DNA of 63,986 nt, filler included, from a bacterium (GTDB lineage: Bacteria; UBA9089; CG2-30-40-21; SBAY01): NCBI GenBank assembly GCA_040757115.1. It is 7 parts of 7 records of this genome, joined end to end, with 100 filler letters (N's around TTAATTAATTAA, not from the genome) between each part and the next. Parts side by side here need not be neighbours in the genome. Positions count along the whole stretch, not along the records: positions 48,987 to 58,565 come from JBFLYA010000143.1; 6 more parts are not named here. The stretch is one strand, 5' to 3'. The position numbers and the translations under genes were made by a program. The first letter of the stretch is position 1, and the number at the start of each line of letters is the position of its first letter. Positions 9,742-58,665 of this stretch are shown one piece after another. Under the pieces are notes generated by a model. It searched no databases. It saw only the letters and a list, made by a program, of their open reading frames with translations, and was not told where the DNA came from.

Positions 9742-9841
9742 NNNNNNNNNNNNNNNNNNNNNNNNNNNNNNNNNNNNNNNNNNNNTTAATTAATTAANNN
9801 NNNNNNNNNNNNNNNNNNNNNNNNNNNNNNNNNNNNNNNNN
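9742..9841. other. Artificial contig spacer
   Basis: N-run, TTAATTAATTAA, N-run; 100 nt. Confidence 0.99.
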
Positions 9842-19570: not shown

Positions 19571-19670
19571 NNNNNNNNNNNNNNNNNNNNNNNNNNNNNN
19601 NNNNNNNNNNNNNNTTAATTAATTAANNNNNNNNNNNNNNNNNNNNNNNNNNNNNNNNNNNNNNNNNNNN
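19571..19670. other. Artificial contig spacer
   Basis: N-run, TTAATTAATTAA, N-run. Confidence 0.99.
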
Positions 19671-29378: not shown

Positions 29379-29478
29379 NNNNNNNNNNNNNNNNNNNNNN
29401 NNNNNNNNNNNNNNNNNNNNNNTTAATTAATTAANNNNNNNNNNNNNNNNNNNNNNNNNNNNNNNNNNNNNNNNNNNN
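29379..29478. other. Artificial contig spacer
   Basis: N-run, TTAATTAATTAA, N-run. Confidence 0.99.
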
Positions 29479-39158: not shown

Positions 39159-39258
39159 NNNNNNNNNNNNNNNNNNNNNNNNNNNNNNNNNNNNNNNNNN
39201 NNTTAATTAATTAANNNNNNNNNNNNNNNNNNNNNNNNNNNNNNNNNNNNNNNNNNNN
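39159..39258. other. Artificial contig spacer
   Basis: N-run, TTAATTAATTAA, N-run. Confidence 0.99.
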
Positions 39259-48886: not shown

Positions 48887-48986
48887 NNNNNNNNNNNNNN
48901 NNNNNNNNNNNNNNNNNNNNNNNNNNNNNNTTAATTAATTAANNNNNNNNNNNNNNNNNNNNNNNNNNNNNNNNNNNNNNNNNNNN
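48887..48986. other. Artificial contig spacer
   Basis: N-run, TTAATTAATTAA, N-run. Confidence 0.99.
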
Positions 48987-55933: not shown

Positions 55934-56108
55934 TAAAAATAAAGGTAAGCGTTCAGCCAAAGACCAGAGAGCATAGACTATAGACTATAGACCATAGACT
56001 ATAGACCAAGGAACCGATGAAAAGCAAGTTTATTCCCCCTTAAATTCGGGACTCGGGACTGGGGGTTCGAGATTCGGGAAGGCTGGTAGCCACAGACTTC
56101 AGCCTGAT

Positions 56109-56216
56109 TTCTCCTGAAAATAGGAAGTAGAAAGTAGAAAGTAAAGAAAACATCACTCCTCACGCCTATCTCCTTACCTCCCACCTTCTATCTCCTACCC
56201 CTATTTTCATCCTCCT
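56109..56216 (-). mobile_element. Family C element (left hairpin missing), truncating the MNT gene
   Basis: Near-identical to 47946-48060. Confidence 0.75.
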
Positions 56217-56467
56217 CGTATATTTTTAATGCCTTCTTTCGTTAGTACATCAACCTTTTTTCCAAATAAGTTTTCAAGATATTCCACAAATCTAATAAAT
56301 TTGAACCCTATTGGTTGCTTGAATTCAACAACTATATCTAAATCACTATCCTTTGTCAGAGTCCCAGTTACCACTGAGCCAAAAATACCGATTTTGGAAA
56401 CACCATATTCAGTCGCTAAAACATTATAATATTTCCTTATTAAATGTGTCACTTCTTTTTTATCCAT
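56207..56467 (-). CDS. Minimal nucleotidyltransferase (MNT antitoxin-like), C-terminus truncated; cassette gene
   Basis: IGIFGS..DSDLDIVVEF..LENLFGKKVDV; begins just after an attC R' site. Confidence 0.85.
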   Translation of the reverse strand: MDKKEVTHLIRKYYNVLATEYGVSKIGIFGSVVTGTLTKDSDLDIVVEFKQPIGFKFIRFVEYLENLFGKKVDVLTKEGIKNIRGG

Positions 56468-56493: not shown

Positions 56494-56624
56494 GGCTAAC
56501 GATAAAGTTCAGGTGCGGCGGGGAGAATTACCACAAAAGTTTGATAGCAAGATAAAACTTTGAGAGACCACAAAACTCTAATTACGGCACAGCCCCCACC
56601 GTCAACTGCAACGCAGGGTTAGAC
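56494..56624 (-). other. Integron attC site
   Basis: Minus strand: R'' GTCTAAC, 5 nt, L'' GTTGCAG ... L' CTGAAC, 6 nt, R' GTTAGCC. Confidence 0.8.
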
Positions 56625-56730
56625 AAAAGCTCTCATTCGCTGTCTTTTCCTTTTCCTCTGCCTCACCGAATTATTGTGCATTCCACATTCACGGTTTGCC
56701 CCTAAAATATCTCCCTCCTTTTTATATTTT

Positions 56731-56749
56731 GCCTAACAATTTGTTAGAC
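56731..56749 (-). other. Collapsed attC-like remnant (R'' and R' 5 nt apart)
   Basis: GTCTAAC-aaatt-GTTAGGC. Confidence 0.4.
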
Positions 56750-56819: not shown

Positions 56820-57200
56820 TTAATCTTTGCTTGCCACATAAGCACCAAAGATTATGGCTCCAATTACGAGGATGTCCAAACCGATCAAGAGTAACAAGTA
56901 AGTTGTGTCAAGATCAGAAGGATACAGAAGCCAGCCAGTGAGAGAAAGGCCGCCAATAAGAATAGCCAAAGTTGTAAGAGCAAAAAAAAGGACAGTCTTA
57001 TTGACTTCTTTAAACATCTTGCTTGTAAGGTAGACAGACAAGCATGCGGCGATAAAGCTGCCTATGGCTCTGCCTATATTAGGCCCTGCAGCTACCCATT
57101 CCCCGTGTATTGACTCTCTTGCCTCAAAAATATTTGCCAACAAGAACCACGAAGGCAAGAAGAAGATATATAGCACTATAACAGCGAAAACATTCTTCAT
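56820..57200 (-). CDS. Hypothetical four-TM membrane protein, cassette gene
   Basis: Hydrophobic; GTTAGGA just upstream of the ATG; visibly higher GC than the host. Confidence 0.6.
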   Translation of the reverse strand: MKNVFAVIVLYIFFLPSWFLLANIFEARESIHGEWVAAGPNIGRAIGSFIAACLSVYLTSKMFKEVNKTVLFFALTTLAILIGGLSLTGWLLYPSDLDTTYLLLLIGLDILVIGAIIFGAYVASKD

Positions 57201-57236: not shown

Positions 57237-57590
57237 TTATTGCGATTGCGAGTTGTCTACATCCGTCTTGTTTGCCGAATCTTTCCTTGCATGCTTCACT
57301 TTCAGAACGAAAATAGATACCATCGCCACTACGATTGTGGCAACATTGACAACTGACCATATTTCCCTTGTGAGGTGAACTCGGATGATTGGGTTATATA
57401 TCACCGCAGTAACGCCAAGAACCCACACCACACCTTGCTTCTCTTGGGCAAGTGACTGAATGGCGAGGTAAGCAAAGATGGCACAACACACCCACCGCAG
57501 AAGGATGTAGTATCCGTAGGGGTTCTCTGGGTTGAGCGCCCACAGCAGCATTGCGCTTGAAATGACTTGGGGTATCCAGATTCGTTTCAT
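57237..57590 (-). CDS. Small membrane protein (DUF6804-like), cassette gene
   Basis: PYGYYILLRWVCC..IYNPIIRVHLTREIW; GTTAGAC plus GAGGA RBS before ATG 57590. Confidence 0.7.
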   Translation of the reverse strand: MKRIWIPQVISSAMLLWALNPENPYGYYILLRWVCCAIFAYLAIQSLAQEKQGVVWVLGVTAVIYNPIIRVHLTREIWSVVNVATIVVAMVSIFVLKVKHARKDSANKTDVDNSQSQ

Positions 57591-57599
57591 GTTTTCCTC

Positions 57600-57693
57600 G
57601 TCTAACGTTTTGCGTAACCGGCTCTGCAAAAAGCAGAGTGAGGAACGAACGCCAACGCCACTTTTGCCGTCCGTGTGGACGCAATTGATAATA
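57600..57693 (-). other. attC site with a degenerate R'' box
   Basis: Minus strand: tattatc aattgc gtccac acggacggcaaaag...ctttttgc..ccg gttac gcaaaac GTTAGAC. Confidence 0.65.
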
Positions 57694-57705
57694 ATTAAAA
57701 GGCAC

Positions 57706-57734
57706 TTGAAATCGATCGTACAGTATGATATAAT
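57706..57734 (+). promoter_or_regulatory. Sigma70 promoter toward the structured segment and IS110 gene
   Basis: TTGAAA-N17-TATAAT with TG extension. Confidence 0.75.
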
Positions 57735-57740
57735 ACCAAT

Positions 57741-57931
57741 GAGTTTATCGCTTTAACCACACCTGGATATATATGGGAAACATTAATGGCTTAACCTTCT
57801 CCTCTGAGAGGCTAAATAACCTTCAGAGGCATACATATCCAGTATGTGGCCTGGAAGGCGCTCGGGTTGCTCTCCAGCATTGCCCTATCCTCCTCCCAGG
57901 GGAGAAAGTTAAGAGTGTAACCATAGATTCT
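57741..57931. ncRNA. Candidate structured ncRNA (possible IS110 bridge/seek RNA)
   Basis: Stems ccaca..tggatat..tatg / cata..atatcca..tgtgg, cctctga / tcagagg and cctgg / ccagg; 57791-57802 is complementary to 57901-57912 at 11/12; bracketed by convergent promoters. Confidence 0.5.
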
Positions 57932-57937
57932 ATTTAT

Positions 57938-57966
57938 ATTATAGCCTTTTCTTTAGCTTGCGTCAA
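57938..57966 (-). promoter_or_regulatory. Sigma70 promoter toward the structured segment and cassette array
   Basis: TTGACG-N17-TATAAT on the minus strand. Confidence 0.75.
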
Positions 57967-58108
57967 GAATTATTTTCATAGGCATCAGACTTATTTACCT
58001 TTTCTAACACAAAAATTGTGGAGGAACATATCTCTTATGTCCCTCTTTAAGGTCGATTTAGAAAATTGACCAATAAATCAAAATTTATTAGTATTAAGGA
58101 GGCCCATC

Positions 58109-58309
58109 ATGAAATATCTTGCTTTAGACGCTCATAGCAACTTTTGTTCATTTGGTGTCCTTTCTGAGGACAATAAGATTCTTACCTGCATCGATATTGA
58201 AACAAGTGAGATGAATCTGATTAATGCAATCCAAAGTGTTTCTGGAACCAAAACACTCGTAGTAGAAGAATCACCATTAGCCCATTGGAGGTATGTGCGA
58301 ATTTTATGA
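58109..58309 (+). pseudogene. IS110-family recombinase N-terminal (DEDD) fragment
   Basis: MKYLALDAHS..C.FGV....KIL....TSE..LI......KTLVVEE..LAHW; AAGGAGG RBS; only 66 aa. Confidence 0.75.
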
Positions 58310-58565
58310 AGATAAAAAAGAAGTAAAGAAAAACGGCTAACATTCCGAAATACAATATGAGAAGTAAAAATTATATTGTATTAAAAGGAGGATATGTTAG
58401 CTATGTATATTATCGGCAATTTGGTGGAAGAAATTAAAGTTCAAGATGAAGTTAAGGTAGCATATTGTACTAAATGTGGATCGACTTTTGTTGGAGAGAA
58501 CAGAATCTATACACGGAATGTCAAACAAGGCAAATTCCAGGGTGGAGAAATAGCAAAAGAGGAGG

Positions 58566-58665
58566 NNNNNNNNNNNNNNNNNNNNNNNNNNNNNNNNNNN
58601 NNNNNNNNNTTAATTAATTAANNNNNNNNNNNNNNNNNNNNNNNNNNNNNNNNNNNNNNNNNNNN
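58566..58665. other. Artificial contig spacer
   Basis: N-run, TTAATTAATTAA, N-run. Confidence 0.99.

Follow-up and report, generated by a model that had tools for sequence, protein, structure and literature searches.

The locus described here lies at the 3' end of one contig (positions 48987-58565) within a stretch of 63,986 nucleotides (nt) of bacterial DNA, filler included, from assembly GCA_040757115.1; this whole stretch is referred to as the window. The window consists of seven contigs, in falling size order from ~9.74 to 9.58 kb, joined by linkers. It is not one molecule, and contigs on either side of a linker are not genomic neighbours. Positions 57686-58102 are the left non-coding end (LE) of an insertion sequence (IS) of the IS110/IS1111 family, which interrupts an attC site of an integron and runs antisense to its cassettes. 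Within the LE, a conserved, structured RNA module lies between two convergent predicted promoters; the LE itself is joined to the broken start of a recombinase gene from a second lineage; the lineage of the LE is called type B, and that of the gene start type A. This anatomy is held with high confidence. The features of the locus are as follows.

57600-57685: interrupted attC site, with an R box GTCTAAC at 57600-57606 (GTTAGAC on the - strand, adjoining the DUF6804 gene) and an arm that ends ...GGACGCAAT at 57685
56494-56625: complete attC site, GGCTAAC ... GCAACGCAGG-GTTAGAC
57686-58102, + strand: non-coding LE of a type B IS110/IS1111-family element, starting TG-ATAATAATTAAAAGG
57706-57734, + strand: near-consensus sigma-70 promoter with TG-extended -10 box, TTGAAA-17-TATAAT (11/12 consensus positions; predicted start ~57741)
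57966-57938, - strand: near-consensus outward/antisense promoter, TTGACG-17-TATAAT (11/12 consensus positions)
58021-58045, - strand: conserved terminator-like hairpin (on the - strand), just upstream of the antisense promoter
57739-57935: insertion/deletion unit of the module
57741-57916, + strand: conserved structured RNA module, 176 nt (covariance model R1, 175.2 bits, E 1.3e-32), with the 5' handle GAGUUUAUCGCUUUAA
57757-57770 with 57835-57849, + strand: helix 'a', enclosing the local hairpin A1/A2
57774-57790, + strand: variable loop, between strand a and strand P-A1
57801-57811 / 57820-57829, + strand: local hairpin A1/A2
57790-57811 with 57892-57913, + strand: long-range helix P-A1 / A3-P', 21 pairs, crossing helix 'a'
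57851-57877, + strand: second hairpin, with inserted small hairpins in other copies, one of them with a UUCG loop
57882-57893, + strand: nearly invariant GCCCUAUCCUCC, 3' of the second hairpin
58096-58288, + strand: ribosome-binding site (RBS) AAGGAGG at 58096-58102 and codons 1-60 of a type A IS110-family recombinase; the frame departs after W60 (58288)
58109-58309, + strand: open reading frame (ORF) of 66 amino acids (aa), stop at 58309
58292-58565, + strand: left end of a nested DDE-type IS, terminal repeat TATGTGCGAATTTTATG at 58292-58308, 95% identical to G001:C423

Positions 57686-58108 were used as the query in a DNA search of 24 genomes of the phylum, the nearest of which (G001) has 48% of sampled 31-mers in common with the window. 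Matches were found in 11 of the 24 genomes, and the whole LE or its start was present at five places with 76-82% identity (G002:C169, G010:C363, G009:C95, G008:C38 and G001:C103, the last being cut by the contig end). The comparison loci are also numbered, so that L001 is G001:C423, L015 is G002:C169, L044 is G001:C578, L053 is G009:C271, L036 is G014:C830 and L012 comes from a Nitrospirota metagenome-assembled genome (MAG). All six LE copies (the window and these five) share their first base (TGATAATAATT, TGATAATAATTAAAAGG, with TGACAAT in G008) and stand after different flanks, as expected for a fixed left end with site-specific insertion. For four of the six, the flank is an attC arm ending GCAGCGAT (L002 and L017), GCAGCGATT (L016) or GGACGCAAT (the window), and in G002 the LE is preceded by the 3' arm of a short hairpin that resembles attC and begins GTCTAAC. 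Uninterrupted attC sites continue for 2-3 nt beyond the insertion point and then reach the R box (GTTAGAC or GTTAGCC), so the element lies just before the R box, and TG is likely to be the shared core of the insertion. The insertion lies near one end of the attC site, with the LE antisense to the cassette genes. A first-pass annotation of this DNA had described the neighbouring attC as having lost its R'' box; comparison with the GTTAGAC terminus of the complete attC bears this out. A search of plasmid DNA with the LE gave no matches.

The first-pass annotation had also placed the segment between a + strand TTGAAA-N17-TATAAT and a - strand TTGACG-N17-TATAAT, and proposed that it had its own promoter plus an antisense or cassette-driving one. 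Both predicted promoters were recovered and are conserved: in the alignment the + promoter is kept in all five other LE copies and the - promoter in the four copies that reach it. Four promoter-like sites were counted in 57500-58400 against 2.9 ± 2.0 in shuffled sequences, so that their number alone is not unusual. The - promoter, which also occurs alone on other contigs, is directed through the RNA module and out of the element, towards the cassette genes. The TATAAT box stands at the same spacing before the module in the G006 and L012 copies, making three contexts with the window LE. L015 carries a compensatory variant of the hairpin at 58021-58045. No + strand terminator-like site was found between the module and the gene in a scan of 57500-58400.

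Reading 5' to 3', the module comprises the handle, strand a, the variable loop, P-A1, A2, a', the second hairpin, GCCCUAUCCUCC and A3-P'. Strand A1 has two possible partners, since it pairs with A2 in the local hairpin or, together with P, with A3-P' at long range, crossing a/a'. The long-range helix and helix 'a' could accordingly form a pseudoknot or represent alternative folds. The long-range helix is present in the minimum free energy fold of 57741-57916, and both strands of this segment fold better than shuffled sequences (+ strand, -57.9 kcal/mol, z -2.5, 1 of 200 shuffles as good; - strand, -69.7 kcal/mol, z -4.7, none of 200), in agreement with the structured segment perceived in the first reading. 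The 11/12 complementarity noted there between 57791-57802 and 57901-57912 also stood, and lies within the 21-pair long-range helix.

Pairing was assessed in alignment A4, which holds 16 module copies from 10 genomes. The long-range helix has 84.9% of its cells paired, and 8 of its 21 pairs are changed on both sides. When a/a', the long helix and the second hairpin were taken together, 80.1% of 664 cells were paired against 75.3 ± 0.6% after shuffling (0/500 as high), and the cells changed on both sides numbered 53 against 23.2 ± 4.3 (0/500). Both-side changes affected 15 of 44 pairs, a value reached by 12 of 500 shuffles. Sliding the partners by 1-3 columns reduced pairing to 41-50%. One pair is G-U in all 15 copies that have letters there. 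Covariance model R1 was built on the long helix and the second hairpin, and 24 copies were aligned to it; the helices outside R1 (a/a' and A1/A2) were tested separately in these copies. They were 77.6% paired against 72.1 ± 0.7% in shuffles (0/500), with 38 cells changed on both sides against 17.1 ± 3.4, and slid controls gave 28-46%. Such changes were seen in 5 of 13 pairs of helix 'a' and in 4 of 10 pairs of the local hairpin, where compensation runs from CUGAGAGG/CCUUCAG in the window to CUGGAAGU/ACUUCCAG in G014 and CUGGGAGU/ACUCCCAG in G010, and the G006 copies extend the hairpin to a 13-bp stem. Sequences inserted in the second hairpin, such as ACCCAC-UUCG-GUGGGU, form small hairpins of their own. 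The predicted fold, with its two crossing helices, local hairpin and second hairpin, is thus kept by compensatory changes. The + strand is favoured as the RNA strand because of the promoter position and the TATAAT box at the same distance in three contexts.

The module is not confined to the LE. R1 gave 33 matches at E<=0.001 in 9 of the 24 phylum genomes, 8 of which were opposite-strand echoes, and the module is also present in the Nitrospirota MAG; no second copy was found in an R1 scan of the window. Rfam returned no matches for 57600-58566 at E<=10, and none for L047, L044, L050, L012 and L005 at E<=0.01. Several copies occur per genome, often at contig ends. The copies in G014, G011, G010, G006, G015 and L012 end 3' in an inverted copy of the handle and strand a, so the whole unit can close into one long hairpin. 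Two G006 copies have over 100 nt of upstream sequence in common and differ from 4 nt past the inverted handle onward. Around most copies (about ±1.5 kb), tblastn with the type A and type B proteins found neither gene, and 5 of the 24 aligned copies (window, L015, L016, L012 and L022) adjoin an IS110-family ORF or its start. L016 has five codons of type B beside the module and L022 six codons of a type-A-like start, and at L012 the module lies inside a type A element, downstream of the gene and on the opposite strand. The module core is 87% identical beside recombinases that are only 23% identical. In a contig of runs X3/X4, position 57738 is directly followed by 57936, with AT flanking the joint on each side, which would represent an LE without the module; this joint is weak, as X3 and X4 are likely one data set filed twice and the contig was placed at 90% likeness with a 32-nt side. 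We infer that the module is a portable unit, because copies are closed by the inverted handle, stand alone, and accompany two recombinase lineages in different positions.

An invertible switch was considered for L012, L005, L020 and L036 and rejected, as these hold whole modules on the other strand in which the 3' inverted handle had been mistaken for the handle. L036 (1100-1950) has two inverted ~85-nt repeats, each consisting of CATAGCGCGGC...GGTTGTTTAGGG plus the module handle, around ~550 nt that hold a further module on the other strand, in a nested or composite arrangement.

The gene start in the window does not belong to the lineage of the LE. A Pfam scan of the 66-aa ORF alone gave no PF01548 match at E<=1. 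Six longer relatives are 73-78% identical over residues 1-60, and five of the six carry PF01548 and PF02371. P0001, P0003 and P0004 are relatives with both domains, P0003 at 28.6 bits against PF01548, for which the cut-off is 29. The earlier assignment of an IS110 DEDD N-terminus is supported by these relatives, and not by the ORF itself. The C-terminal PF02371 domain (Transposase_20, with the catalytic serine) is absent from the window and present in the relatives. Window positions 58073-58289 have 94% nucleotide identity to L012 and L013, whose type A genes encode 336-337 aa and share 23% identity with type B. Up to ~AATAAA (58079) the window matches the type B LE, and from the RBS on it matches type A. 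Type A elements have their own left end of ~105 nt, CTGATAGGAAWTTGATAATATG..., which is absent from the window. The first-pass annotation had looked to the regions upstream of homologues of the fragment for the same structure; L012, L013, L053 and G001:C412 have the ~105-nt end without the module, so upstream conservation fails for the type A lineage.

The LE's own recombinase is found intact in a single copy, G002:C169, where the LE is followed by an ORF of 341 aa with PF01548 (53.6 bits) and PF02371 (65.6 bits). The type B clade is very large, as all 8000 scored candidates were reached at E<=1e-30 (at least 8000 members); no viral contigs with a type B protein were found. The joint between LE and gene was checked in X1 contigs covering 57864-58125, which spans it, and 58260-58452; these have no differences from the window, at a depth of 330-398 compared with 341 in unique flank. 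X1 may be the sample of origin and would then stand for a second assembler, not a second sample. The letters shared at the joint are too few for a k-mer assembly error. The element in the window is dead: a type B LE is joined at the RBS to 60 type A codons, and the gene is cut by the nested DDE-type IS, inside which the contig ends. X1 loose ends show intact type A genes and an internally deleted type A derivative in the same community.

At 336-1774, G001:C423 holds an IS of the DDE type, 1.4 kb long, which is bounded by terminal inverted repeats of 17 bp (CATGTGCGAATTTTATG) and has ORFs for a DUF6431 zinc-ribbon protein and a split DDE_Tnp_ISL3/Mutator-like protein. The deleted type A derivative (L053 ~1440-1690 reverse; L013 1084-1235) consists of ~30 nt of the left end, codons ~21-65 and ~100 nt of the right end. 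A full type A copy stands 1.2 kb downstream of this derivative, whose joint recurs as a loose end in X1.

The window contains neither the type B right end nor, by tblastn, any type B coding sequence or further type A coding sequence. From L015, L044 and plasmid relatives, the right end was deduced to read ...CGAATATG-TG-(G/T)TTGGTGC. The closest annotated plasmid matches of type B are labelled 'IS110 family transposase' and are 43-48% identical. Relatives of 45% identity in Vibrio campbellii and Alteromonas macleodii start TGATACT... and end ...CTCATATG-TG-TTAGGTG or -TTATGTG, with GAACG(C/T)CTAAC-TGG soon after the stop codon. By eye, these relatives have TATTGAGCC / GGCTCATA at 7 nt and 2-4 nt from their ends, and the type B ends have a subterminal inverted match of only 5-6 nt. 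The left leaders of the relatives are ~95 nt long, and in them CUUCUCC pairs with the Shine-Dalgarno (SD) sequence GGAGAAG and the AUG is paired too. At L062 (NC_022271.1, 1102-1190, z -4.1) and L063 (NZ_OX359242.1, 1088-1180, z -6.9) the SD and start codon are paired with the first 20 nt. By this folding, the leader of the plasmid relatives is likely to be a translational trap. The motif order CCUUCUCC ... CUGGAAGGCG ... GGAGAA is common to the plasmid leaders and the module, which may be an expanded derivative of such a leader. R1 scored 10.1 and 9.0 bits on the plasmid leaders (E 2.1 and 3.3), values that are not significant.

Guides were sought as k-mers shared, in each of the six LE copies, between the module and the adjoining 30 nt of flank or the first 20 nt of LE. 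Only 6-7-mers were shared, none of which tracked the flank; in the window, which has no right end or right flank, the comparison covered the left half of a guide match. The check proposed in the first-pass annotation, for loop sequences that match element junctions or attC, thus gave no convincing match there. Matches picked by eye (AUCGCU/AGCGAT, UAUGUGG with the deduced right junction, and CCUAUC with the type A end GATAGG) were set aside as single 6-7-mers after many looks.

The target sequence was matched downstream of the gene instead. G002:C169 has the 19-nt CCAGTTCATTTTTCTTGAT both at the left junction (15 nt of flank plus TGAT) and 80 nt past the stop codon, and this is the only short repeat in the 3.3-kb contig. 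The flank of this copy is unlike the others; the module has no matching change, and the exact 19-nt copy lies downstream of the gene. The downstream non-coding region (NCR) was predicted to fold as follows.

L015 2690-2800, and L044 on the reverse strand: type B downstream NCR, folding as stem / internal loop / hairpin

In G002:C169 a 13+5-bp stem leads to an 8-nt 5' strand AGCCUAAC, a hairpin, and a 3' strand UUUUUCU-UG-A. The 5' strand is the complement of GTTAGGCT, and GTTAGGC is an R box seen in the same contig. G001:C578 has the same fold, with GGUCUAAC as the 5' strand. Its 3' strand reads CUGCGAU, which resembles the attC arm GCAGCGAT and departs from G002:C169 at 6 of 7 letters, in surroundings (~50 nt to each side of the loop) that the two copies share almost letter for letter. 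The modelled loop is likely to be the target-binding loop. It has the shape and behaviour expected of one by analogy, with the top-strand match 5' of the bottom-strand match. No donor-binding loop was identified in the downstream NCR of L015.

These results suggest that the module is a portable accessory RNA of the IS family, which would be transcribed from the LE promoter and act with the recombinase, and which is not the target reader. We give this predicted role a probability of roughly 0.4. The RNA would serve the recombinase as a scaffold resembling a bridge RNA, in donor-side or excision steps or in the spread of the module itself. Target reading would be left to the separate loop downstream of the recombinase gene, as in the one intact relative, with the 5' strand of the loop complementary to the R box and its 3' strand a copy of the final 7 flank letters followed by TG and AT. 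The full extension of this proposal is a split, modular RNA system, in which the downstream loop would read the attC R box and the 7 nt before the core, a separate portable module would serve donor recognition, excision or its own spread, and the module, bounded by inverted repeats when complete, would be exchangeable between recombinases of only 23% identity and multiply as recombinase-less mini-elements in integron-rich genomes. Taken in all its parts, that system is unlikely.

Several observations weigh against the accessory role. No donor-guide match was found in the module. The downstream target loop is known from two copies, only one of which has its own left flank, and the type B right end was deduced, not seen as an empty site. 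The link between module and recombinase is one of neighbourhood, in 5 of 24 aligned copies. Genomes with a PF02371 match were 6 of 9 among module-positive and 6 of 15 among module-negative genomes, which is no clear association, in counts affected by kinship among the genomes and by repeats that assemblies often miss. Relatedness alone, with no structure present, can carry sequences past the shuffle control, although the slid controls and the hairpin-forming insertions speak against mere relatedness as the explanation. Lastly, the G-U and A-C counts leave the RNA strand undecided, and the - strand folds better.

The module could instead serve expression control as part of a long, structured 5' leader of the recombinase mRNA, crossed by an antisense RNA from the convergent - promoter, as in ISPpu9; the two would set the amount of recombinase, and the outward promoter would also drive the cassettes. 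This is possible, if rather less probable. Both promoters are near-consensus and conserved, no terminator-like site separates module and gene on the + strand, and the leaders of the 45% identical plasmid relatives pair their SD and AUG. The module also has the motif order of these leaders, and the weak R1 matches fall exactly on them. ISPpu9 offers a precedent, with a structured 5' untranslated region, the antisense small RNA (sRNA) Asr9 and a movable sRNA module (excerpt of PMC12288879). However, when the entire leader of the window or of L015 is folded, the module pairs within itself and leaves the RBS free; trapping of the RBS by the module's CCUCC was accordingly dropped. Many module copies have no downstream gene, and the L012 copy is 3' of the gene on the opposite strand. 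The nearly invariant single-stranded motifs, kept across contexts, exceed the needs of an RBS trap.

The unit might also be a non-autonomous mini-element, comparable to a miniature inverted-repeat transposable element, without functional RNA, in which the pairings would be DNA inverted repeats and recombination boxes for a recombinase acting in trans. Complete copies bounded by inverted handle repeats, the divergence of the G006 flanks 4 nt past the repeat, and the several copies per genome, often at contig ends, would fit, as would the LE variant lacking the unit between AT and AT. G-U and A-C departures are about equally common, as DNA would give. Such an element is nevertheless quite unlikely, as the compensatory changes fall in internal helices and not in the terminal repeats, the insertions form hairpins, one with a UUCG loop, one pair is invariably G-U, and the -10 box is held at a fixed distance in three contexts.

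According to the first-pass annotation, this was a bridge-RNA-like locus, and 57741-57916 would then be a complete bridge or seek RNA holding both target and donor guides. The upstream NCR on the gene strand, with its own promoter, a two-domain fold and ~176 nt, is the usual IS110-type place for one (excerpts of PMC11187229 and PMC13626964), and GCUUAAC, found in the 5' half of the long helix, is complementary to the R-box-like GTTAAGC. A complete bridge RNA is very doubtful, because the target match is elsewhere and the module is common to distant recombinases. The k-mer search of six copies found nothing that tracks the flank; the differing flank of L015 is matched by an exact downstream copy and not by a change in the module; and the variable loop at 57774-57790 differs among copies in similar attC arms. 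The same core, moreover, stands beside recombinases of 23% identity. What remains of the original description is a non-coding IS110 end in an attC site, with conserved predicted promoters and a structured RNA; the guides were not found, the likely target loop is elsewhere, and the LE belongs to a lineage distant from that of the gene fragment.

That the module is an attC-like decoy or substrate of the integron integrase, its long helix mimicking R''-spacer-L'' ... L'-spacer-R', is highly improbable: GCTTAAC-CTTCT-CCTCTGA ... CAGGGG-AGAAA-GTTAAGA has the attC box layout and several copies stand directly after R boxes, but the boxes are not kept in other copies (CCAAAC, CCTAAT, TTTAAT) and the real attC sites of these genomes look different.

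The attC site interrupted by the LE belongs to a region in which three small - strand genes are separated by attC-like palindromes, and which is a short integron cassette array. The remaining features are these.

56207-56467, - strand: small gene with a nucleotidyltransferase domain
56820-57200, - strand: small gene for a membrane protein
57590-57237, - strand: cassette gene, DUF6804
9742-9841, 19571-19670, 29379-29478, 39159-39258, 48887-48986 and 58566-58665: artificial linkers between contigs, N44-TTAATTAATTAA-N44

A strict attC pattern search of the contig gave no matches, the R boxes being one letter off the pattern. Between the complete attC and the next cassette gene lies a minimal palindrome, GCCTAAC-AATTT-GTTAGAC (56731-56749), of two R boxes with almost no spacer. 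Tandem ATAGACT-like repeats and GAAAGTA repeats occur at 55975-56010 and 56120-56145, between a glycosyltransferase-like gene and the first cassette. Rfam matches to microRNA-like families at 56109-56208 were below the cut-offs and lie on a hairpin of purine/pyrimidine runs, and were attributed to chance. A repeat of ~320 nt is present in three genomes (G002:C169 60-280 and 2992-3312; L049, G001:C515; L048, G021:C301). It is bounded by ...CTCTTGACAAATTGCCTTTAATATGTG, terminates in GTTAGGC, adjoins cassette-like DNA, and has no ORFs of at least 60 aa and no Rfam matches. For the repeat downstream of L015, identity as a group II intron was considered and was given no support by Rfam.

RNA-guided IS110/IS1111 recombinases are under development as programmable genome-editing tools, and members that target attC also shape integron cassette arrays. 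The locus adds a lineage, found in uncultured bacteria, with long non-coding regions at both ends of the element; a structured RNA that is conserved, has no Rfam family and travels with and without recombinase genes; and, apart from this module, a likely 7-nt programmable loop for attC sites. If the module is a separable cofactor, it would bear on how such elements recognise their own ends and on parasitism by non-autonomous RNA modules; if it is only a leader, what is seen here would be a commonplace IS copy in decay, whose outward promoter faces the cassettes. In any case, the copy in the window is a decayed, nested remnant. Elements of IS1111 type that target attC, seek and bridge RNAs, and movable sRNA modules in IS110 elements are already in print. 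New, set against the papers cited here, are the lineage, the long LE whose structured RNA has its own promoter and is seen in at least four contexts, and the fact that this module and the target-matching loop appear to be separate.

The closest known counterpart is the IS1111-attC group (ISPa21, ISPst6, ISKpn4 and ISPa25), whose members lie near one attC end, antisense to the cassettes, with a suggested outward promoter (excerpt of PMC3001079). A seekRNA from the NCR downstream of the gene is described for ISKpn4, ISPst6 and ISPa25, and IS1111-type seekRNAs have the top-strand match 5' of the bottom-strand match (excerpt of PMC11187229). The present elements are alike in their DEDD-type recombinase family, in antisense insertion at an attC end and in the outward promoter, and the intact relative G002:C169 also has its target-matching loop downstream of the gene. 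They differ in that the upstream NCR is also long (~420 nt), with an extra structured RNA and its own promoter, in that inspection by eye gave no clear subterminal inverted repeats of 11-13 bp for type B, and in their hosts, which are uncultured groundwater bacteria. Group IIC-attC introns share the antisense targeting of attC and have outward promoters able to drive cassettes (excerpt of PMC3001079), but consist of a ribozyme and a reverse transcriptase, and no group II intron family of Rfam was matched here.

The IS621 bridge RNA and the ISEc21 seekRNA resemble the module in size, in their multi-domain fold and in being encoded on the gene strand of the upstream NCR, a placement that holds in the window and L015 but not in L012. 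Unlike them, the module has no target or donor guides that could be found, and it occurs alone and with unrelated recombinase lineages. The LE promoter is also complete within the LE, whereas that of IS621 is rebuilt across the circle junction (excerpt of PMC13626964). ISPpu9 of Pseudomonas putida, with Asr9 and the movable ssr9, is an IS110-family element that likewise has a structured leader and an antisense promoter upstream of the gene, and its sRNA module is found with the gene, without it and in several combinations. There is no sequence relation between the two. The sRNA of ISPpu9, as stated in an excerpt of PMC12288879, is not needed for transposition.

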